A stretch of 64,000 nt of DNA from NCBI GenBank assembly GCA_964513145.1, contig CAZELK010000003.1, positions 48,870 to 112,869 of the forward strand, written 5' to 3'. Below the pieces are notes generated by a model, which was given only the letters and a program-made list of their open reading frames with translations, made no database searches and was not told where the DNA came from. The position numbers and the translations under genes were made by a program. How positions within the stretch are numbered: position 1 is the first letter of the stretch; each line of letters opens with the position of its first letter. Shown in pieces: positions 3,022 to 62,929 of this stretch. The stretch is from Candidatus Woesearchaeota archaeon. GTDB taxonomy: Archaea; Nanobdellota; Nanobdellia; SCGC-AAA011-G17; JACPIM01.

Positions 3022-3987
3022 ATGATTTGTTTAGGCATTGAGGGAACTAGTCATACATTTGGTTGTGGAATTGTGACTAGCAAGAAAAAGATTCTTTCTG
3101 ATGTTAGAGATATGCATACGACTGAAGAAGGAGGAATTATACCAGTTATTGCAGCAGAACACCATAAAAAAATAGCTAAACAAGTAATTGAAAAAGCAAT
3201 TTTGGAAGCGAGATATCCAAAAATAGATTTAATTAGTTTTTCAAGAAGTCCGGGATTACCGCCGAGCCTGCATGAAACTAGAAAAATTGCATTGGAATTA
3301 GCAAAAGAAATGAATTTGCCAGTTATTGGCGTTAACCATGTTGCTTCGCATTTAAGTTCTGCTCATTTTCATACTAATGTTAAAGACCCAGTATATCTTT
3401 TTGTTTCTGGAGCAAATACACAATTATTAATTTTAGAAAATAAGAAATTTCATATTATTGGAGAGTCTTTAGATATTGCAATAGGAAATGCTTTAGACAA
3501 ATTTGCAAGAGAAATTGGCTTGGGTTTTCCAGGCGGACCAAAAATTGAGGAACTAGCAAAAAATGGTTCTTATGTTGGCTTGCCTTATTTAGTGAAAGGA
3601 ATGGATTTGAGTTTTTCCGGCATAGTAACTTATCTTACAAATTTGTATAAGAAAAATTTTAAAAAAGAAGATTTATGTTTTTCTTTTCAAGAAACTTGTT
3701 TTGCTATGCTAACAGAAGTAGCTGAAAGGGCTATGGCAAACTGCGATAAAAAAGAATTAGTTTTAATTGGGGGAGTAGCTGCAAATAAAAGATTAAAGGA
3801 AATGTTAAATATCATGTGCAATGAAAGAAAGTCGAAATTTTATTCTGTTCCATTGAAATATAGCGGGGATCATGGCGCAATGATTGCTTATCAAGGTATT
3901 TTGGAATATAATTCAACTAAGAAAGTAAATACAGAAATAAATCCTTATGAAAGAGTTGATCAAATAACTGCTAACTGGAAATATTAG
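3022..3987 (+). CDS. kae1: tRNA N6-adenosine threonylcarbamoyltransferase Kae1 (KEOPS catalytic subunit)
   Basis: N-terminus MICLGIEGTSHTFGCGIV and the HVASHL metal-binding motif. The ORF-track start at 3010 is a TTG. The first in-frame ATG is 3022, which restores the typical Kae1 N-terminus. No fused or adjacent Bud32. Confidence 0.85.
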   Translation: MICLGIEGTSHTFGCGIVTSKKKILSDVRDMHTTEEGGIIPVIAAEHHKKIAKQVIEKAILEARYPKIDLISFSRSPGLPPSLHETRKIALELAKEMNLPVIGVNHVASHLSSAHFHTNVKDPVYLFVSGANTQLLILENKKFHIIGESLDIAIGNALDKFAREIGLGFPGGPKIEELAKNGSYVGLPYLVKGMDLSFSGIVTYLTNLYKKNFKKEDLCFSFQETCFAMLTEVAERAMANCDKKELVLIGGVAANKRLKEMLNIMCNERKSKFYSVPLKYSGDHGAMIAYQGILEYNSTKKVNTEINPYERVDQITANWKY

Positions 3988-4024
3988 AACCTTTTTAATT
4001 AAAAAGCTTTACCAAAAATTTACC

Positions 4025-4663
4025 CTAGCTTGCTTCTGCGAATTTTATTCTCAAATTTTTTAATTCCTTTTTAATTTTATTATGAATGGTTGCTGCTGAG
4101 ATGTCTAATTCTTTAGCAACTTTCTTCATACTTTTTTCTTCTTCAAAATACTTTTTAAATATATCTTTAGTTTGCGGTTCCTTGATGCTGTAATTTATAC
4201 ATTTTAATAATTCTTCTTTTTCTAGAATATCTACTTGCTTTTCTCTTTCTGATTCTACTATCTCTTCCAATTGAGACCAATTATTATTTGTAACATATCT
4301 ATGTCTTTTTTCTTTTCTTAGCGAGTCAAGTATTTTACTTTTTGCACATGAATAAACGTATGTTGAAAATCGGCTTTGATAATTATAATTTTCAATATTA
4401 TTTATGGCTTTTAATAATCCCAGATTTCCTATGCTTATCAAGTCTATAAAATTAATTTTACAACCTAGAAATTTATTCGCAACAGCACTAACAACCCAAA
4501 GATTATGATTTAGCAGTTTTTCTTTTATTTTTTCATCTTTTTTAGCTTTTTCTACCAATTCTTTTTCTTCTTCGTCATTTAGCCTGTGATATTTACTTAT
4601 TTCATTAAAATAAATCTCAATTACATCAACACCATTTTTTCTTTTATATTCCAATCTTTTCAT
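4025..4663 (-). CDS. sigma-70 family RNA polymerase sigma factor-like protein (regions 2 and 4 only; ECF/SigH-like size)
   Basis: NLWVVSAVANKF..FIDLISIGNLGLLKAINNIE..SRFSTYVY aligns with sigma region 2 (NLRLVVSIAKKY..FLDLIQEGNIGLMKAVEKFD..KFSTYA). C-terminal SMKKVAKELDISAATIHNKIKKELKNLR aligns with the region 4 HTH (TLEEVG..VTRERIRQIEAKALRKLR). ATG start; AT-rich like neighbours. Confidence 0.75.
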   Translation of the reverse strand: MKRLEYKRKNGVDVIEIYFNEISKYHRLNDEEEKELVEKAKKDEKIKEKLLNHNLWVVSAVANKFLGCKINFIDLISIGNLGLLKAINNIENYNYQSRFSTYVYSCAKSKILDSLRKEKRHRYVTNNNWSQLEEIVESEREKQVDILEKEELLKCINYSIKEPQTKDIFKKYFEEEKSMKKVAKELDISAATIHNKIKKELKNLRIKFAEAS

Positions 4664-5063
4664 TATTAGAAATTTAATTTTTGTATTTTAATATATTTCT
4701 ATCTAGAAAGAATTTTTTATTAATAATTTTAGAATTAAAAAAATAAAAAAACATAGGTAATTGGCTTGTATTTTATTTTTGGGCTATTAGTAACTGCAAG
4801 CTGAATACGTCGCCGAAGCTTCGTACTTACACTTCAGTCCTATCAAACTCATGTTCTTTGAGCGCCCTATATCTCTTTTCAAGTATAGCTTCCTCCTTAG
4901 ATGCTTTCAGGAGTTATCTATTAGAGCGTAGCTGCTCGGCCTGCCTTGTCAGACAACCGATACACCAGAGGCTCCGAATCATTGTTCCTCTCGTACTAAA
5001 TGATCCTTACCTTCAGATATTAAGCACTTCCAGTAGATATAATCCAAACTGTCTCACAACGTT

Positions 5064-5150
5064 ATGTTAAACGGGAGGAATTGAACCTCGCTTCGGCAAA
5101 TACATAGAGATGTTTTAATTTGCTTATGTATTTGCTTACAACCGTTGCTT
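5064..5150 (-). other. intron-like insertion (about 87 nt) in 23S domain V between GAGCTGGGTT and AACGTTGTGAGACAG (A-loop / helix 92-93 region)
   Basis: Canonical GGGTTTAGAACGTCGTGAGACAG is interrupted. The insert contains an 11-bp hairpin GCAAATACATA/TATGTATTTGC and AACGG/CCGTT at its ends. Confidence 0.55.
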
Positions 5151-5204
5151 AACCCAGCTCACGAACCATTTTAATGGGTGAACACCCCCACCCTTGGCTG
5201 CCTA

Positions 5205-5394
5205 CAGTTCGAAGGACAATTCGTGAAAATAGTTTTCCTTAAAGTCAAAATATTAGTGATTAATTTAATATAGTTCTAAATAGTTCTCAAATTAACATAC
5301 TAATTTTTAGACTTCTAAGTAATAGATATCGGAAATAAAAGACATTTTGACTTGAAAAACTATTGTTCGTATGATTGTCCTTCGACATTCTGCA
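5205..5394 (-). other. intron-like insertion or expansion (about 190 nt, very AT-rich) in the 23S 3' domain within the GGCTG...CAGCC helix loop
   Basis: Closed by a perfect 12-bp inverted repeat TCGAAGGACAAT/ATTGTCCTTCGA, with outer CAG/CTG pairing. Flanking rRNA sequence GTGGCTG / TAGGCAGCCAAGGGT is conserved. A further 31-nt hairpin insert sits at 5401-5432. Confidence 0.5.
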
Positions 5395-7034
5395 CAGCCA
5401 CTATATTGATACAAGAATTAACTTTATATCATGGATATGGTGAGCCGACGTCGAAGTAGCAAACAGCGCCATCGATATGAGCTCTTAGGCGCTACGACTC
5501 AGTTCTAGGGATCTAAGAGAAAATTTTTGATCTCTAAGATTATCCCCGAGATAGCTTTTCTGTCATACCTAGCCCCTATTAATAAGGACATAGGGGTTCG
5601 CTAGACCAGACTTTCGTCTCTGGATTTTTTAATAGTCAAAATCCAGTCAGGCCAACTTTTGCTCTTGCACTCTTCAGAAGATTTCCAAACTTCTTGAGTT
5701 GACCTTAGGGCCCTGTTGATATCTTTTCAACAGGGTGCCGCCCCAGCCAAACTGTCCAACTGCTGCTGTCCCAACTTTCGTTGGTAAGTAACATAAATTC
5801 TACAGAGTGGTATTTCAATTTTGTCTATCCTTAACCTAGCAGCTAAGGCATAGCGACTACCACCTATACTACACAGTAGAACATATATCACAACAACAGT
5901 CTACAGTAAAGTTCTACGGGGTCTTTTCTTCCCGCTGGAAGTCTCTGGCCTGCACACCAGAAGGGTATTTTCAGTGGATACTAACTAGGGACAGTGCGGA
6001 TCTCGTTACGCCATTCATGCGCGTCGTCATTCAAACGACAAGGTACAACGATATCATTAATCTCATTTCTCAGATTCAACTTTTCAGTTCAAAATGTGAA
6101 AGATATTTTTTGTTTAACAAACCCAAGGCAATTCTCTTAGATGAATGGCTTTTTCATCAAAATCTATAGCGAGATTAATGATAATTTCGCTACCTTAAGA
6201 GAATTATAGTCTAGAATTGTTAAAGATTTTTCTTACAACAAATATTCCCGCCGTTTACAAGTCCTTAGCCTCCTTGAAAAGAGGTTTTAGATACTTGCAC
6301 TGGGCAGACGTCACGTCTCATACACATCATTGCTGACTTGCGAGACGTTACGTTTTTGTTAAACAGTCGGACCCGCCTAGTCACTGCGCCCTGTAATTGC
6401 AGTTAGAAACTACAACCGCAGGGATTCCTTCTACCAAAGGTACGGAACTAAATTGCCGATTTCCCTTAGCTAGTTTACACCATCATACCTTAGGCTTCTC
6501 ACCTAGAGTACCTGTGTTGGTTCTGGGTATAATTATTCAAGATCCTTTTTAATTTCATTTTCACGGACTCCAGGCATCAACCAAATGGACCATAAGGTCC
6601 ACTATTCTTAAAATTAATCAAGTTCTCACCATTACGGTACTTCCTTGATTTGTTTTAATTAACATCCAAGACAATAGATGTTGGCTTAGCCCAAAATGTC
6701 TGAAACTAAACTTGTGTTACCACGCGTACTTGAATAGTAAAGGAATATTAACCTTTTTCCCATTCCCTAAGACCTATTAGGCCTTTGGTTAGGATTAACT
6801 TACTCTTAGCTGATTTGCATTGCTAAGAAACCCTTACTCTTACGGTATCAGGGAGTCTTACCCTGTATTGCTCCTACTACTACCAGGATTCTCATTTTTA
6901 TTAGGTCCACTATTTCTTTCGAAAAAGCTTCTACCCTAACAAAGCGCCTACCTACCACATAAGTTCTTTACTTAGTCTATAGTATCGGTAACTGATTTAG
7001 CCCCGTCCATCTTCAGGGCATATAACCTTGACAG

Positions 7035-7077
<43 letters not shown>

Positions 7078-8348
7078 TACCTCCCTGCTGTCTCTGGTTA
7101 TACACGCCTTTTACCCTTTAACACTTAATCAGTATTTAGGGACCTTAACTATAGTCTGGGTTGTTCCCCTCTCGCGATATAAGCTTAACCCACATCGCTT
7201 TTTCCTAAGGTCTCAGATGACAAAATATTCGGAGTTGGACGAAGAGGGGAGGAATTTCTTCCCCTTACCCCTAAATCCGTAGCTCTACAATTTTATCTAT
7301 CTCACTTAAGACTAGACTGAGGCCTATTTCGGTAGGAACCAGCTATAACCAGTCTCGATTGGCTTTTCACCCCTAATCTAAGGTTATACAAACAGATTTA
7401 CACTAGAACTGCTTCAGGCCTCCACAAGGTTTTACCCCTGCTTCACCTTACCCTAGAATAGATCGACTGGATTCGGGTAGCATCCAAGTGACTATAGGCA
7501 CTTTCATACCTAACCCCTCCTTGAAAAGTGTGGGTTTTTGGTTTCCCTTCAAGTTCAAACTGAAAAGTTTTTACTTTCGCCACTTAAATGCACTCCCTGG
7601 CTCGTTATTCGAAACGCACGATACAACTCCGAAGAGCAGTATCATTCTGTATTCATTAGGTTTCAGGATCTTTTCACTCCATGTTAAAGGTTCTTTTCAA
7701 CTTTCCTTCGCAGTACTCTTTGCTATCGGTCTCAAGTTATATTTAGAGTTGGAAGTTAATAGCTCCCACATTCACACCCCATATCCGAGGAGTGCTACTC
7801 TGGATACCTCGCAAGTCTATTAATCTGCTCTACAGGACTATCACCTTCTATGATGTCTTTTTCCAAAGAACTTTGAGCAGAATTAATTAAGATCAAAAGC
7901 AAGGTCCAAACACTACATTTCTATTTTATTTCTAAAATAGATTCAGTTTGCTCTATGTCGTTTTTTCTCGCTGATACTCACGACATCTATTTGATTTCTT
8001 TTCCTCCAGGTACTAAGACGTTTCAATTCCCCAGGTTCCCAATCTTTTCAGATTTAATGAGAAGTCTCATTCAGAAATCTCCAGTTCACAAGTTGCATGC
8101 ACTTCGCTGGAGCTTATCACAGCTTGCCATGTCCTTCTTCGGAACTTGAGCCAAGTCATCCACCTAATGAAGTAGGAAAAATACAGGCCAATTACCTATG
8201 CACGGAACTATATAAAAATAATTCCCTTGACCCAAAAAAATTTCTTTTTCTGAGCTGCATTTTAAACTTTTTAAAAAAAGTTTAATCAAAAATAAGAACC
8301 GAGGTTCTTTTCAACTCCTAAAAGTTGATTATATTTTTGAATATGAAA

Positions 8349-8545: not shown

Positions 8546-10090
<1,545 letters not shown>

Positions 10091-26027: not shown

Positions 26028-28118
26028 TCATAAAAATAAAGGAGCAAGTACTAACATTAAAGTTCCTAATAATTTAATTAAAACATGTAAAGATGGACCA
26101 TTTACATCCTTTGTAATGTCTCCTACAACATCACCAGTTACTGCCGCTTTGTGAGCTTCAGAACCTTTTCCACCATGAAATCCGGATTCAATATATTTTT
26201 TTGCGTTGTCCCAAGCACCACCAGAATTATTCATTAAAATGGCTAATAAAATCCCTGAAATAGTTCCGATTACTAAAAAAGCTGCAGCAGCTTCAGCTTT
26301 TAATAAAAATCCTACAACTGCTGTTGCAACAACAATTAATAAACCAGGAATCATCATCTCTCTTAAAGCGTTTTTAGTGCAAATGTCTACACAAGCTGCG
26401 TAATCAGGTTTGTCTTTTCCCTGCATAATCTTTTTTTCTTTAAATTGTCTTCTAACTTCTTCTACAACAGTCATTGCTGTATCACTTACTGCTTTGAATG
26501 TGAAGGAACTAAATAAAAAAATTAACATTGCTCCTAATAATCCGCCAACAAAAACTTCTATTTTAGAGATATCAATTGTTATTATTTCTCCAGTTAATGA
26601 TTTTACTTCGTCTAAATAAGCTGTGAATAATAAAAAAGCAGCCAATGCAGCTGAACCAACAGCATAACCTTTTGTTAATGCTTTTGTTGTATTGCCTGTT
26701 GAATCTAATTTTCCAATTATTTTTAAAACATTTTTGTCTTTTACTCCGGACATTTCTGCTATACCCCCAGCATTATCTGCAATAGGACCGAAAATATCCA
26801 TAGCCAAAATATAAGCAACAGTAGACAATAAACCAATTGTTGCAACTGCTGTCCCATATAAACCACCAATTAAATTTCCAGAGTCATCAATTATATCCGT
26901 ATATTGTCCAAATTTATATGATAAAATTAAAGCTATAGATAGAATTATTACTGGTGCTGCTGTACTTTCCAAAGCATAAGCGAAACCAGTAATTACATTT
27001 GTTGCATGACCTTTTTCAGATGCTTTTGCAATTTCTTTTACAGGCTTGAAATAATGATGAGTATAATAAGTAGTGTTTATGAACAATAAAATTCCAGTAA
27101 CTAAACCAACCAAAGATGCATAAAAAAACCAGATATTATTGAATAAACCTAATCCTATATTAACACCAAAAATACTTGATTTCATAATTATAAAATATAA
27201 AAATATTGCTGATAAAATTGTTGTAATTAAATAACCTCTTGACATTGATTTCATCGGATCTTCTTCATTTTTGGATTTTGTCAGCATTACCCCGATAATA
27301 GAAGCAATTAGACCAAAAGCCATTGCTGTCAAAGGAAACAAAATTCCGTTTAACCCGAATACATTAAACAAGGCTACACCTATAATCATAGCACCAATAT
27401 TTTCAGCTGCAGTACTTTCAAATATATCAGCACCTCTTCCTGCACAGTCTCCAACATTGTCACCAACTAAGTCAGCAATTACTGCTGGATTTCTTGGGTC
27501 GTCTTCTGGTATATCTTGTTCGACTTTACCCACTAAGTCTGCACCAATATCTGCTGCTTTTGTGTAAATTCCACCACCTAATTGCGCAAATAAAGCAACA
27601 AAAGAAGCTCCAAACCCAAAACCAACTAGCAAGAAAGGAATTTCTTTCGGAGTATAGTAAAATGAATCAATATAATATAGTAAAGTTACTCCCAATAATG
27701 ACAAAGTTATAATTGTTAAACCAGCAACTGCCCCTGCTCTTAAAGAAATTTTTAGTGCTTTGTCTAAAGATGAAGAAGCTGCTGCAGTTCTTATGTTCGC
27801 TCTTATTGAAATCCACATACTCACTAAACCAGCCAATGATGAGGAAGCTGCGCCAAATAAAAATGATAATGAAGTTAATAACCCCAAACTTTGTTTTCCT
27901 ATGAAATAATATATTAAATATATTATAATTGCCAATAATAAAGCTAAAATTCCAATTGTGGAATATTGTCTTTTCATAAAAGCATTTGAACCTTCTTTTA
28001 TCGCGTTTGCAACATTCTGCATTTCTTTTGTTCCAGTATTTTCATTGAGAACATAATGGGCTAGATAAATAGCAACAAATATTGAAATCAATGACAACAC
28101 TATTATGTATTCTAGCAT
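26028..28118 (-). CDS. hppA: membrane-bound proton/sodium-translocating pyrophosphatase
   Basis: GDNVGDCAGRGADIFES and the GGIAEMS...D-rich motifs of V-type H+-PPase; about 16 TM segments. Confidence 0.9.
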   Translation of the reverse strand: MLEYIIVLSLISIFVAIYLAHYVLNENTGTKEMQNVANAIKEGSNAFMKRQYSTIGILALLLAIIIYLIYYFIGKQSLGLLTSLSFLFGAASSSLAGLVSMWISIRANIRTAAASSSLDKALKISLRAGAVAGLTIITLSLLGVTLLYYIDSFYYTPKEIPFLLVGFGFGASFVALFAQLGGGIYTKAADIGADLVGKVEQDIPEDDPRNPAVIADLVGDNVGDCAGRGADIFESTAAENIGAMIIGVALFNVFGLNGILFPLTAMAFGLIASIIGVMLTKSKNEEDPMKSMSRGYLITTILSAIFLYFIIMKSSIFGVNIGLGLFNNIWFFYASLVGLVTGILLFINTTYYTHHYFKPVKEIAKASEKGHATNVITGFAYALESTAAPVIILSIALILSYKFGQYTDIIDDSGNLIGGLYGTAVATIGLLSTVAYILAMDIFGPIADNAGGIAEMSGVKDKNVLKIIGKLDSTGNTTKALTKGYAVGSAALAAFLLFTAYLDEVKSLTGEIITIDISKIEVFVGGLLGAMLIFLFSSFTFKAVSDTAMTVVEEVRRQFKEKKIMQGKDKPDYAACVDICTKNALREMMIPGLLIVVATAVVGFLLKAEAAAAFLVIGTISGILLAILMNNSGGAWDNAKKYIESGFHGGKGSEAHKAAVTGDVVGDITKDVNGPSLHVLIKLLGTLMLVLAPLFL

Positions 28119-28536: not shown

Positions 28537-28624
28537 TGCAGTAGCAGGGATTTGAACCCTGGTCAGAGCCTTGGGAAGGCCCAATATTAGTTCTTTTATT
28601 GTCTAACCACTATACTACTACTGC
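28537..28624 (-). tRNA. tRNA-Gly(CCC) with a 13-15 nt non-canonical intron at the D-loop/D-stem junction
   Basis: Reverse complement GCAGTAG-TA-GTAT-AGTGGTTAG[ACAATAAAAGAACTA]ATAT-T-GGGCC-TTCCCAA-GGCTC-TGAC-CAGGG-TTCAAAT-CCCTG-CTACTGC-A. All stems pair. 88 nt total versus about 74 expected. Confidence 0.6.
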
Positions 28625-30531: not shown

Positions 30532-31152
30532 TTATTTTTTTGCTTCTTTATAATATTCATTTACTTTATCCCAATTAATAACTTTGTAAAATGATTCAAT
30601 AAACTCATTTTTTCTGTTTTGATATTTAAGATAGTAGGCATGTTCCCAGACATCTAAACCAATAATTGGTATTTTTCCTTGAGAAATTGGACAATCTTGA
30701 TTTGGTGTAGAAATTATTTCTAAATTTCCATTACTCAACACTAACCAAGCCCAACCACTTCCGAAAACTGTCAGAGCTGCTTTTGTAAATTCTTCTTTAA
30801 ATTTGTCAAAAGATCCAAATTTAGATTCTATTGCTTTTAGAATTTCTCCGGACGGCTTAATGTCTTTTTTTAACATTGGCCACCAAAATGAATGATTAAA
30901 ATGGCCACCACCATGATTTTTTACTTGGTTTCTAATTGCTTCTGGAATTTTATTTAAATCTTTTAATAATTCTTCTATTGTTTTATTTTGCAAATCTTTA
31001 TGAGATTCTAATGCTGCATTTAATTTATCTACATAAGTCTGATGGTGCTTATCATGATGAAGTTTCGTTGTTTGCTCATCAAAATAAGGTTCTAAAGCAT
31101 TATATGCATATGGTAATGTATCTAATTTGTGCACCATTTTAATAACCCCCAA
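30532..31152 (-). CDS. sod: Fe/Mn superoxide dismutase
   Basis: HHDKHHQTY..., ...DVWEHAYYL metal ligand motifs. Confidence 0.9.
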   Translation of the reverse strand: MGVIKMVHKLDTLPYAYNALEPYFDEQTTKLHHDKHHQTYVDKLNAALESHKDLQNKTIEELLKDLNKIPEAIRNQVKNHGGGHFNHSFWWPMLKKDIKPSGEILKAIESKFGSFDKFKEEFTKAALTVFGSGWAWLVLSNGNLEIISTPNQDCPISQGKIPIIGLDVWEHAYYLKYQNRKNEFIESFYKVINWDKVNEYYKEAKK

Positions 31153-36482: not shown

Positions 36483-37100
36483 TTAAAAGTATTCCAGAAC
36501 ACTTTTTATTTTTACAGTTATTTTATATTTTTTAAATAATTGATGAAAAATATTTGTATGCTCGGAATCTATTATAATGCAACCTTTTCCTAATTTTTCT
36601 GCTTTGTACTTTTGAATTAATCCCAGATAAAATTTTTCATTTTGTTTATATCCAAATAATTGTTTATTAAACAACACTCTTTTCGAATTTGGCTTAATAT
36701 TCTCCCATATAAAAAATACCTTATGTTTTCCATCTTTTATTTCTGGTTTATATTTTCCGTATAAAATAATTCCATTTGCAACAATACTCGGTTTTAAATC
36801 AGTCCATTTATCTAATTCTCCAATCATCAATTTTATTTCGTTTTTAATATTTAATAATTTCCAATAATTTTTATATTTTGCAGAATTTTCAAAACCATTT
36901 AAAATTTTCTGAATTTCATTTTCAATTTTCTTATCTTCTCTTATTAAATCTATAAATATGTCTATATCACTATCTTTTCCAACTTCCTCTCTTGCTACAG
37001 ACCCAAATAAAATAATATTTTTAATTTTATTTTTATCATTGATATTCTGAATCAAGAAAGATGTAAAATCCAATACATATGACATTAATTTATAATTCAT
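36483..37100 (-). CDS. nucleotidyltransferase-domain protein (Pol-beta superfamily, MNT-like N-terminus)
   Basis: ILFGSVAREEVGKDSDIDIFIDL (GS-x9-13-DxD). Confidence 0.6.
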   Translation of the reverse strand: MNYKLMSYVLDFTSFLIQNINDKNKIKNIILFGSVAREEVGKDSDIDIFIDLIREDKKIENEIQKILNGFENSAKYKNYWKLLNIKNEIKLMIGELDKWTDLKPSIVANGIILYGKYKPEIKDGKHKVFFIWENIKPNSKRVLFNKQLFGYKQNEKFYLGLIQKYKAEKLGKGCIIIDSEHTNIFHQLFKKYKITVKIKSVLEYF

Positions 37101-51574: not shown

Positions 51575-52093
51575 ATGGATGAAATAAATATTGACAAGAA
51601 CATATTCAAAGCATTATCAGTTGAAACAAGAGTGAGAATTCTAAAATTATTATTAAAAAATAAATTAACTCAAACAAATATTGCTGAAAATTTAAAATTG
51701 ACAATTCCTTCTATAAAGGAGCATTTAGATTTTTTAGTGAAGTCTAACTTAATAAGTAGATTAGAAGAGGGAAGAAAATGGAAATATTATCAAGTAACAG
51801 ATAAAACCAAGAGTTTGTTTAATTCTGAATATTATAAATTTGTTATAACATTGGGTGTATTTGTAATAAGTGCTGGTTTAAGTTTTATAATTTCATTACA
51901 GAAATCAGCATCGTTTATTATGGAAAAAACAGAAATAGGAATTATTAGCGAAAAAATAGTCTTAGCAAAAGAACCTTCAATACTTTTTTCTTTAATTTTA
52001 ATTATAGCGATAATCTCTTTAATACTCGTTATTTTATGCTGGTTTAATTACAGAAGAACCCCTTATAAAATTGTAAGGTTTTTACCTAAATAA
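51575..52093 (+). CDS. ArsR-like winged-helix transcriptional regulator fused to two C-terminal TM helices
   Basis: LSVETRVRILKLLLKNKLTQTNIAENLKLTIPSIKEHLDFLVKSNLI (HTH) plus hydrophobic C-terminus. Confidence 0.55.
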   Translation: MDEINIDKNIFKALSVETRVRILKLLLKNKLTQTNIAENLKLTIPSIKEHLDFLVKSNLISRLEEGRKWKYYQVTDKTKSLFNSEYYKFVITLGVFVISAGLSFIISLQKSASFIMEKTEIGIISEKIVLAKEPSILFSLILIIAIISLILVILCWFNYRRTPYKIVRFLPK

Positions 52094-61631: not shown

Positions 61632-62253
61632 TCTTGTTAACTTCGTCAATAAATTTATTTTTGCTCAAATTTCCATCTAGCATATATGCCTTTCTTGGAA
61701 CTTGGAGGACATTTTTAAATTTAATAAGTTTTTTGTATATTTTCATAGATTTTTTAATTTTTTTTCTTTTTATAATCCTCTGATATGCTTTTTCTAAATC
61801 AACTTTAATATAGATTACTATTGGAATATAACTATGCTCTTTTGCCATTTCTTTTAATCTATTCCTATACTTAACTAAATCGCTATTACTATCAGAAATA
61901 AGGTTGATATTTCTCATCATTAATAATTTAAACATTTCTTTTTGTATAACAAACAAATCTTTTAATGAAAAATCACACTTTATTTTAATTAAGTAATTTT
62001 TAATACTATCTGTAGAAATTTTAATAAAATTAAACTTTTTTTCCAATTCTTGTGAGAGAGTAGTTTTCCCGCTTCCCGGGATACTTGCTAGAATAATAAG
62101 ATAGTTATTTTTGAGCCTGCCTTCTTTAATTCTAATATTCTGGATTAAATTTCTTGCTATTAAATGCATCTCATTTCTTTTCATTTTTACTTTTGATATA
62201 ATCATCCAATAATTCTTCAGAAAGTCTTTCAATAAAATTAATTGCCCACTCAA
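61618..62253 (-). CDS. P-loop kinase (polynucleotide/gluconate kinase-like AAA_33-type); start probably at an internal Met
   Basis: ILASIPGSGKTTLSQEL Walker A. The annotated start overlaps the upstream gene by 83 nt. MKRNEMH or MHLIARN are more likely starts. Confidence 0.55.
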   Translation of the reverse strand: MSGQLILLKDFLKNYWMIISKVKMKRNEMHLIARNLIQNIRIKEGRLKNNYLIILASIPGSGKTTLSQELEKKFNFIKISTDSIKNYLIKIKCDFSLKDLFVIQKEMFKLLMMRNINLISDSNSDLVKYRNRLKEMAKEHSYIPIVIYIKVDLEKAYQRIIKRKKIKKSMKIYKKLIKFKNVLQVPRKAYMLDGNLSKNKFIDEVNKINFE

Positions 62254-62929
62254 AGGTTTTTTCTGTTATGTTATATTCTTTCCTTTTTAATTCAAAGCAT
62301 TTCTTAACAACATCTAAGTTATTTAAATTCGAAAATTCATATAAGAATTTTTTTTCTACTTCAGCATCTCTATAGATGAATATTCTTTTATAAATCAAAG
62401 CAAACTTACAGGCGTAAGTTACGAATTTAACGGCTTGTTTTTTAGCTTCCTTCAAAGAGTTAGAAGTGAGATATATTTTTCTAATCCTATATCCTAGAGT
62501 CAATAATAACTTTAGTGCTTCTTCAGGTAATTCGCCATAATCGATTTGTATATTTTTTAGGATATCTTTTCCATAAAGAAGACAGTCGTAGTATTTAATT
62601 TCAAATAAAAGTAATGCGTGTCGATATTTATGGGGAAATAATAAACTACTGATAACTTCTTCTTTAATTTCTTTTTTTGATATGATATTTGTATCAATCT
62701 TTCTACCGAATTTTTTCTCAGTATCTTTTATAGCACCTTTCAAATCTAATAAGTCGTTGTAATCTGATTTATTTACAAATATATTAAGGTCTATATCACT
62801 CTTTTTATTTATTGCATTTTCGGCAAACGAACCCATTGTATAAATTGCTAATACATTATCTTTTAGTTTGTGCTTCTCAACAAGATACCTAGCAATTTTC
62901 ACTCCTTCTTTAATAGTCTTATTTAACAT
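62171..62929 (-). CDS. Pol-beta superfamily nucleotidyltransferase (KNTase/ANT-like with C-terminal helical domain)
   Basis: IYTMGSFAENAINKKSDIDLNIFV (GS...DxD). Confidence 0.6.
   Translation of the reverse strand: MLNKTIKEGVKIARYLVEKHKLKDNVLAIYTMGSFAENAINKKSDIDLNIFVNKSDYNDLLDLKGAIKDTEKKFGRKIDTNIISKKEIKEEVISSLLFPHKYRHALLLFEIKYYDCLLYGKDILKNIQIDYGELPEEALKLLLTLGYRIRKIYLTSNSLKEAKKQAVKFVTYACKFALIYKRIFIYRDAEVEKKFLYEFSNLNNLDVVKKCFELKRKEYNITEKTFEWAINFIERLSEELLDDYIKSKNEKK

Follow-up and report, generated by a model that had tools for sequence, protein, structure and literature searches.

In textbooks, transcription initiation in bacteria is told apart from that in archaea by sigma factors on the one hand and TBP, TFB and TFE on the other. 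Sigma-70 genes (fam00359) were described in DPANN archaea by Castelle et al. 2021, who reported them as 'particularly prevalent in Woesearchaeota', found TBP, TFB and TFE in the sigma-bearing genomes, excluded mis-binning as a cause, detected no anti-sigma factor and did not settle on a mechanism (PMC8204110). No later functional study of archaeal sigma homologs was found in full-text literature searches. Here, a sigma-70 family gene was analyzed that lies between the 23S rRNA gene and a Kae1/TsaD-family gene in 64,000 nucleotides of Candidatus Woesearchaeota archaeon DNA (contig CAZELK010000003.1), a stretch referred to as the window; its product is referred to as the window sigma. Based on sequence profiles and fold, it was concluded that this open reading frame (ORF) encodes a bona fide sigma-70 family protein. 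It was also concluded that the gene was acquired from bacteria long ago by a narrow Woesearchaeota lineage. The identity of the protein and this evolutionary part of the explanation are considered nearly certain.

The likeness to fam00359, to which the window clade may belong, consisted of sigma-70 genes placed on verified archaeal contigs of Woesearchaeota type with no anti-sigma partner. Archaeal sigma homologs were already known; the present analysis contributes a description of the locus, of the reduced architecture, of the determinants that were lost, of the predicted archaeal promoter and of the exceptionally high rate at which the clade evolves. The published account of fam00359 is one paragraph long, and a fixed rRNA-Kae1 locus, the absence of region 3, the replacement of residues for melting and recognition, a basic isoelectric point (pI), a roughly ten-fold increase in the ratio of nonsynonymous to synonymous divergence (dN/dS, omega) and a narrow lineage are not reported there.

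The 212-aa protein was arranged as sigma1.2, sigma2, a short linker and sigma4, and the motifs HNLWVVSAVANKF, DLISIGNLGLLKAI, FSTYV and SMKKVAKELDISAATIHNKIKKELKNLR were found in the ORF by inspection. Three Pfam profiles scored above their gathering thresholds (GA): Sigma70_r2 (PF04542; 43.2 bits vs GA 24, E 3.5e-11, aa 52-120, profile positions 3-70 of 71), Sigma70_r1_2 (PF00140; 25.3 bits vs GA 22, aa 13-43) and, marginally, Sigma70_r4 (PF04545; 25.7 bits vs GA 24.1). The NCBIfam model TIGR02937 matched aa 48-206 with 91.5 bits against a cut-off of 42.9. The phmmer search of PDB sequences returned sigma factors only, and the protein aligned to SigA, RpoS and RpoD chains with E values down to 2e-12. 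A single-sequence AlphaFold2 (AF2) prediction was uninformative, with a predicted local distance difference test score (pLDDT) of 39.7. The model built from a 52-sequence alignment reached a pLDDT of 88.5 and consisted of two helical domains and a disordered join (aa 130-139, pLDDT <50), the helix-turn-helix (HTH) domain of region 4 being helical and predicted with a pLDDT >90. The top 50 Foldseek matches of this model in the PDB were all bacterial sigma factors (probability 1.00, E 4e-6 to 5e-4). TFB, TFE or any other HTH family was absent from the Pfam, NCBIfam and top-50 Foldseek results. Hence, the original prediction of a sigma-70 factor encoded in an archaeal genome directly downstream of the 23S rRNA gene was borne out by the region 1.2, 2 and 4 profiles, TIGR02937, the fold and the archaeal 23S and 16S rRNA genes, and the other HTH identities that it had considered were not. 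The chance of a 212-codon open frame in window DNA of 28% GC was estimated as ~2e-8, stops being expected at ~0.08 per codon.

Further, the protein was compared with the described classes of sigma factors. It resembled the group 3 sigmas (SigE/SigK, SigF/G, FliA, sigma32) in having a region 1.2-like segment, region 2 and region 4, and in a length near that of SigE/K; the best full-length NCBIfam subfamily alignments were to SigK (60 bits) and SigE (58.8 bits). It differed from them in falling far below every equivalog cut-off (60 vs 252-339 bits), in having no region 3 and in its host, an archaeon that, on the present account, is without bacterial RNA polymerase (RNAP). The minimal sigma2-linker-sigma4 arrangement of ~200 aa and the match to the TIGR02937 superfamily model were reminiscent of the extracytoplasmic function (ECF, group 4) sigmas. 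Those, however, are without region 1.2, to which the window sigma has a match, and both PF07638 Sigma70_ECF (17.8 bits vs cut-off 21.1) and Sigma70_r4_2 (PF08281; 20.3 vs 25.7) remained below their thresholds, the latter being the one profile among those named beforehand (r2, r4, r4_2) that did so; no anti-sigma gene was adjacent either. The window sigma therefore fits, by its sequence, neither group 3 nor ECF.

The best matches outside the clade were primary-like sigmas of streamlined bacteria, P0002 and P0157, which were 35-46% identical in region 2 and aligned throughout regions 1.2-2.2. These proteins differed in having 282-346 aa, region 3, a WW dyad, a TRERIRQ-type helix, a pI of 6.0-6.5 and a ribosomal or NusA-IF2 gene context. 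Archaeal TFB and TFE are alike in being initiation factors that occupy the clamp and dock surfaces of RNAP, the only plausible site for sigma2 and sigma4 on the archaeal enzyme (PMC7289017), whereas no sequence or fold similarity to them was found in the window sigma. Comparison with phage-encoded sigmas and the defence-associated MzaA gave no specific family match, and no viral or defence context was seen at the locus.

The regions of the protein (Table 1) were kept to different extents. Residues were mapped by HMMER alignments to SigA and are given in the E. coli sigma70 numbering, in which the functional residues are established genetically. No match to region 3 (PF04539) was obtained in the window sigma even at E <=1, and in the alignment with P0002 and P0157, both of which contain this region, its linker lacked ~60-80 aa. 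In regions 2.3/2.4, Y430 was kept, while W433, W434, Q437 and T440 were replaced by S, C, S and L, respectively, and no clade member had a tryptophan at the W433/W434 dyad positions. The bacterial TRERIRQ of region 4.2 aligned with SAATIHN, so that R584, E585 and R588 became A, A and H; the recognition helix was different in each clade member and the RER motif was present in none. The expectation that region 2 would match bacterial sigmas nearly motif for motif was thus only partly justified: the quoted motifs are there, and region 3 together with the equivalents of W433/W434, Q437/T440 and R584/E585/R588 is missing.

The best-conserved element of the clade was the DLIxxGNxGL helix of region 2.2. 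The contacts to the beta' coiled-coil, D403/Q406/E407/N409, read D/S/I/N in the window sigma; across the clade, the D403 and N409 equivalents were mostly kept, Q406 was variable (S/C/R/G/E/D) and E407 was kept in about half of the members. The helix was degenerate in P0097 (EASIKL) and P0013 (VSNLKL). Mean pairwise identity peaked in regions 1.2-2.2 at 0.39-0.41, and the linker and region 4 had the smallest values (0.23-0.28). The pI of the clade was basic (8.2-9.7), compared with 6.0-6.5 in the bacterial relatives. Many members ended in a tail of a hydrophobic residue followed by E-A-A/S (AEAS, AEAN, VEAA, MEAA, ILAA or IYAA). It was also observed that this tail resembles a degron of the ssrA-like ...AA type and that the L010/L015 lineage is without it.

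The host is archaeal, of Woesearchaeota type (DPANN), and the sigma gene is natively encoded. The gene started 103 nt past the end of the 23S rRNA gene. The archaeal 23S 3' end lay directly upstream of sigma in nine loci (L004, L005, L007, L008, L010, L011, L015, L016 and L029), and Kae1 adjoined sigma in L002-L011, L014-L016 and L029. Two Logan assemblies, made independently from different runs, showed the identical sigma-Kae1 arrangement, and orthologs were recovered from ENA, JGI, Logan and NCBI assemblies of other samples and sites, among them an NCBI contig of 291 kb. The organism occurs in the sequencing runs SRR12113424 and SRR12113420. Elsewhere in the window, archaeal genes encoded Nre, the large and small subunits of RFC, CarS (CDP-archaeol synthase), PTH2 and L15e, and the closest named relatives of RFC were from Woesearchaeota, the identity of the small subunit to proteins labelled 'Candidatus Woesearchaeota archaeon' being 77-82%. 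The composition of the sigma gene, foreseen as native, was inside the range of the window genes in every respect (GC 0.258, GC at third codon positions (GC3) 0.183, codon correlation 0.853, tetranucleotide correlation 0.939).

Misassembly of bacterial DNA, or its acquisition in very recent times, has a practically negligible probability as an explanation of these data. The nearest longer homologs, P0002 and P0157, do sit on bacterial contigs, with the gene orders S6-SSB-S18-sigma-S10-L3 and MerR-sigma-ProRS-RimP-NusA-IF2. Nevertheless, a chimera is contradicted by the 23S > sigma < Kae1 junctions, which recur in independent assemblies from different samples and several sites, as well as by the base composition, codon usage and tetranucleotide pattern, all of them native. 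No bacterial sigma was more than ~46% identical, over part of the protein. Orthologs have diverged to 29-61% identity inside the archaeal lineage. The misassembly that the original prediction had allowed for was excluded by the linkage recurring in independent assemblies, and the recent acquisition that it had listed among the candidates was refuted, the gene being syntenic and vertically inherited across lineages with saturated synonymous sites.

The distribution of the clade was narrow. An exhaustive phmmer search with the window sigma against 1.84 billion protein representatives (50% identity) gave 14,272 sigma matches, only four of them with E <=1e-30, and about ten full-length relatives of 200-232 aa. 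A metagenome scan anchored on Kae1 collected 80 loci with a Kae1 identity of 34-86%, in which sigma was sought by a local HMM search. It was found only in loci with Kae1 at least 80% identical, and 23S-Kae1 adjacency was likewise restricted to the sigma-bearing group. When loci found via the sigma proteins were added, the lowest Kae1 identity between two sigma-bearing genomes was 76.6%. A GTDB genome scan with the single protein, whose patterns were of low complexity, returned only an Omnitrophota sigma. In the protein and metagenome searches, the clade was confined to one lineage of genus or family rank. The sister locus L017 (Kae1 77% identical) carried a 303-aa PyrB-like aspartate carbamoyltransferase (3472-4383, minus strand) instead of sigma in the slot between 23S and Kae1, and the content of the slot is therefore variable.

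A viral origin was considered and rejected: no close relative was found on IMG/VR contigs, the single remote match (29% identity) being on a 241-kb jumbo-phage contig, and the gene context is housekeeping. PHROGs and PADLOC gave generic sigma matches only (phrog_351, 81.8 bits; MzaA, 30.6 bits, aa 45-112). On the 999-nt contig L013, the clade member P0014 (75-746) was succeeded in tandem by another sigma-like ORF, which was partial (783-998; HMM E 2e-14), and no 23S end was present upstream of P0014. This tandem suggests paralogs in another context.

The sigma gene evolved much faster than its surroundings. Between the window and L004, sigma was 31% identical, when the neighbours were 67-87% (Kae1 86.9%) and the 23S rRNA ~94-96% identical; over all genome pairs, sigma identity was 29-61% and that of Kae1 77-90%. 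The DNA identity profile was ~72-82% upstream, 30-64% in the sigma ORF and 70-92% in Kae1, dropping at the ORF boundaries. In the same genome pairs, synonymous divergence (dS) was 0.84-1.36 for sigma and 0.61-1.22 for Kae1, both near saturation. The nonsynonymous divergence (dN) of sigma (0.28-0.69) was five- to ten-fold above that of Kae1 (0.05-0.16). The resulting dN/dS was ~0.27-0.78 for sigma, a probable overestimate because dS was saturated, and ~0.07-0.2 for Kae1; the value of 0.27 came from the least saturated pair. Since the dS of sigma was close to the dS of Kae1, sigma shares the history of its flanks. It was concluded that sigma is long-resident and vertically inherited in the fixed slot rRNA operon > sigma < Kae1, and that it is under selection, yet much more weakly constrained than its neighbours.

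Two other causes of the divergence were dismissed. Swapping of cassettes or alleles, to which the identity drop at the ORF edges and sigma distances not tracking those of Kae1 might point, was unnecessary, as dS was about equal and only dN differed. A hypermutation or diversity-generating retroelement-like mechanism was ruled out by the finding of 0 nucleotide differences in sigma within populations, compared with up to 12 in Kae1. As a separate observation, L006 and L005 differed by ten single-nucleotide polymorphisms in ~150 nt (~879-1026 of the locus, the Kae1 3' end) beside sigma, when the rest of 5 kb was almost identical; this cluster may mark a tract of recombination where Kae1 and sigma meet.

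Such rates raise the question of a functionless relic, namely a sigma gene, gained long ago by horizontal transfer, that drifts to eventual loss since the cell is unable to use it. It could account for a divergence far above that of all neighbours, with omega up to ~0.8, for the disappearance of the canonical functional residues and region 3, and for the PyrB-like gene occupying the slot in the sister locus. We consider it improbable, because an intact ORF of 200-232 aa was kept in all of the ~ten sampled lineages despite saturated dS and the expected frequency of stops, omega was 0.27 in the least saturated pair, and the hydrophobic core, the fold and the upstream promoter-like element were preserved. 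Moreover, DPANN genomes are streamlined, so dead genes would be expected to be deleted.

The signals around the gene appear to fit archaeal expression of sigma, as judged from their sequence and conservation. The TATA-like element anticipated by the original prediction was recognized as the core TATATTAA at 4688-4695, centred ~29 nt before the ATG. It was conserved in the closest ortholog: L004 has the identical 17-mer TAGAAATATATTAAAAT, equally far from the ATG, despite a dS of ~0.9 between the genomes. A leaderless mRNA was predicted because of the position of this core and the absence of a Shine-Dalgarno sequence. In more distant orthologs, a box of AGA plus a TATA-like sequence was located further upstream, and GGTG, GTGAT or AGGT, complementary to the 16S 3' end GGATCACCTCC, stood 6-10 nt before the ATG. 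No excess of bacterial sigma70-type promoters was detected around the gene (7 sites vs 5.9 +/- 2.5 in shuffles). The small inverted repeat noted earlier was present as the palindrome TTCTA-GA-TAGAA at 4697-4708, although it was not conserved in orthologous loci; it was rejected as an operator and is probably a chance occurrence in AT-rich DNA.

Further upstream, the oligo-T run TTTTTTTATTTTTTT is probably the archaeal terminator of the rRNA operon, archaeal RNAP being known to terminate at oligo-T. The 3' half of the 23S processing stem, AAAATACAAGCCAATTACCTATG, was conserved across loci and belongs to the classic type of archaeal rRNA processing stems. It was also observed that the motif AATTCTAA (4731-4736), just past the oligo-T run, was conserved in the window, L004, L008, L009 and L015 beyond what a terminator needs.

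The sigma clade appears to be no longer a canonical promoter-specificity subunit. A non-canonical activity is suggested because region 3, the tryptophan dyad and the -12/-35 contacts are lost, the charge is basic, the recognition helix and the core contacts drift, an anti-sigma gene was not found and the host is archaeal. Profile scans of the ORFs with 110 aa or more revealed no anti-sigma gene or bacterial RNAP subunit in the 64-kb window, and no anti-sigma gene was adjacent to sigma, its neighbours being the 23S rRNA and Kae1 in all loci. We tentatively favour, as quite possible, a domesticated, non-essential, lineage-specific nucleic-acid-binding regulator that would be accessory to TBP/TFB/TFE. 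An ancient bacterial sigma-70 gene was gained and then inherited vertically in the slot between the rRNA operon and the convergent Kae1, where selection holds the ORF open behind a predicted archaeal-type TFB recognition element (BRE)/TATA element. The sigma2 and sigma4 folds would serve as DNA-binding or protein-docking modules beside the normal TBP/TFB/TFE, and expression would probably start from a leaderless promoter belonging to the gene itself, with a possible contribution of transcripts reading through from the rRNA operon. The protein would thereby resemble most regulators of archaea, which are HTH proteins of bacterial type. An ordinary example of the bacterial HTH type, an ArsR-family winged-helix regulator (51575-52093, plus strand; HTH_5, E 1.9e-9), was observed in the window.

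Several points weigh against such a regulator. The best-conserved segment is sigma2 with the core-binding helix DLIxEGNxGL and not the HTH, and this conservation fits a role directed at RNAP or single-stranded DNA at least as well as it fits a classical HTH regulator. A regulator that recognizes specific sequences in a conserved regulon would hardly be expected to have a recognition helix varying among close relatives. In addition, the alternative bacterial sigmas FliA, SigE/K and SigF/G are also without the tryptophan dyad, and its loss alone is therefore no proof of a lost sigma function. Finally, the inspection for bacterial RNAP and partner genes covered 64 kb of the genome only.

The conservation of regions 1.2-2.2, including the core-binding helix and most of the N409 and D403 equivalents, and a fold consisting of an intact sigma2 plus sigma4 would both be explained if sigma2 docked on the clamp coiled-coil (Rpo1N) of archaeal RNAP, at the TFE/Spt5 site, where the protein would help in initiation or melting as an additional factor or compete with TFE/Spt5. 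Transcription would then run on a hybrid system drawn from the two domains. In bacteria, sigma2 binds the beta' clamp helices, and this coiled-coil is structurally conserved in archaeal RNAP. The variability of the beta'-contact positions Q406 and E407 among close relatives and the degenerate helices of P0097 and P0013 are not in agreement with such docking, and so high an omega would be uncommon in a protein tied to an interface with RNAP. To our knowledge, there is no precedent for an RNAP-directed sigma factor in archaea. DPANN have been reported to lack TFE-beta (PMC7289017), which was counted in favour. On balance, an RNAP-directed factor is rather unlikely, although it is the main rival of the accessory regulator. 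A more specific version, in which sigma2 on the Rpo1N clamp coiled-coil would assist or gate promoter opening and its expression might be coupled to rRNA synthesis via the post-operon position, is regarded as decidedly unlikely; if true, a sigma-70-derived protein wired into a Pol II-like apparatus would provide the first case of initiation machineries from bacteria and archaea functioning as a hybrid.

The rapid, lineage-specific divergence also resembles that of arms-race genes, and the generic likeness to phage sigma families (phrog_351) might suggest a protein delivered by an episymbiont to redirect or block the RNAP of a bacterial partner, in the manner of phage sigmas or anti-sigma decoys. 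That DPANN are predicted symbionts (PMC8204110) was counted for this idea. Nevertheless, the protein had no signal peptide and no secretion-associated neighbour, its context being housekeeping (rRNA, Kae1, Gmk), and the beta'-contact and promoter-recognition residues for a hijack of bacterial RNAP were not conserved. The lack of close relatives on IMG/VR viral contigs and of within-population diversity in sigma also spoke against it. The proposed hosts of Woesearchaeota are mostly archaea, a further argument in the same direction. Such an inter-organism effector is thus very improbable.

A sigma factor kept for so long in an archaeon would mean either a core component turned to another use or a sigma2/sigma4 scaffold working with a Pol II-like polymerase. 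The locus offers a test system with a compact 212-aa protein, a defined, if predicted, promoter, natural variants of 29-61% identity in near-identical backgrounds and a sister lineage without the gene.

Table 1. Features of the sigma locus, with positions in the 64,000-nt window.
Feature	Position	Strand	Basis and remarks
Sigma-70 family gene	4025..4663	-	212 aa + TAG stop; ORF, Pfam, TIGR02937, AF2, Foldseek
Region 1.2	4535..4627	-	aa 13-43; PF00140; aligns to SigA region 1.2 in PDB chains
Region 2	4304..4510	-	aa 52-120; PF04542; SigA residue mapping; clade alignment
Short linker replacing region 3	4178..4303	-	aa 121-162; no PF04539; alignment gap; partly disordered
Region 4 HTH	4049..4177	-	aa 163-205; PF04545; aligned to C. 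difficile SigA region 4.2
C-terminal tail ...KFAEAS	4028..4048	-	aa 206-212; clade alignment
Predicted BRE/TATA-like promoter element TAGAAATATATTAAAAT	4685..4701	-	sequence; conserved in L004
Oligo-T run TTTTTTTATTTTTTT	4737..4751	-	conserved in orthologous loci
23S processing stem, 3' half AAAATACAAGCCAATTACCTATG	4752..4774	-	~23-bp helix with 23S 5' flank (cofold, duplex prediction)
Archaeal 23S rRNA	4767..8187	-	Rfam RF02540, 2246.6 bits; directly upstream of sigma, same strand
Archaeal 16S rRNA	8546..10089	-	Rfam RF01959, 1354.2 bits; 3' end ...GGATCACCTCCT
Kae1/TsaD-family gene	3022..3987	+	PF00814, 241.8 bits; convergent with sigma, 37-nt gap

Some further features of the window and of related loci were recorded. 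The flanking genes named in the original prediction were confirmed for Kae1, RFC, CarS, PTH2 and L15e. Its tRNAs with bulge-helix-bulge (BHB) introns were not recovered, since ARAGORN and Rfam gave a single tRNA in the window, tRNA-Ser at 28537-28624. Similarly, a Pfam scan of the ORFs with 110 aa or more gave no match in support of the HPF-like gene. The 23S rRNA of the window, with 3421 nt against a model of 2987 nt, carries inserts. In relatives, one to four LAGLIDADG homing-endonuclease ORFs were found inside the 23S rRNA gene (L005 255-734; L007 841-1320; L010 406-7183), and this position indicates rRNA introns in the lineage. Nucleotidyltransferase/DUF6036 pairs, possibly toxin-antitoxin-like, were located at 434-949, 36483-37100 and 62171-62929 of the window. 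A membrane H+-pyrophosphatase (801 bits; 26028-28118, minus strand) and an Fe/Mn superoxide dismutase (30532-31152, minus strand) were also encoded there by the small genome of this archaeon, two functions, in metabolism and in the response to oxidative stress, that are often discussed as bacterial-like acquisitions in DPANN.

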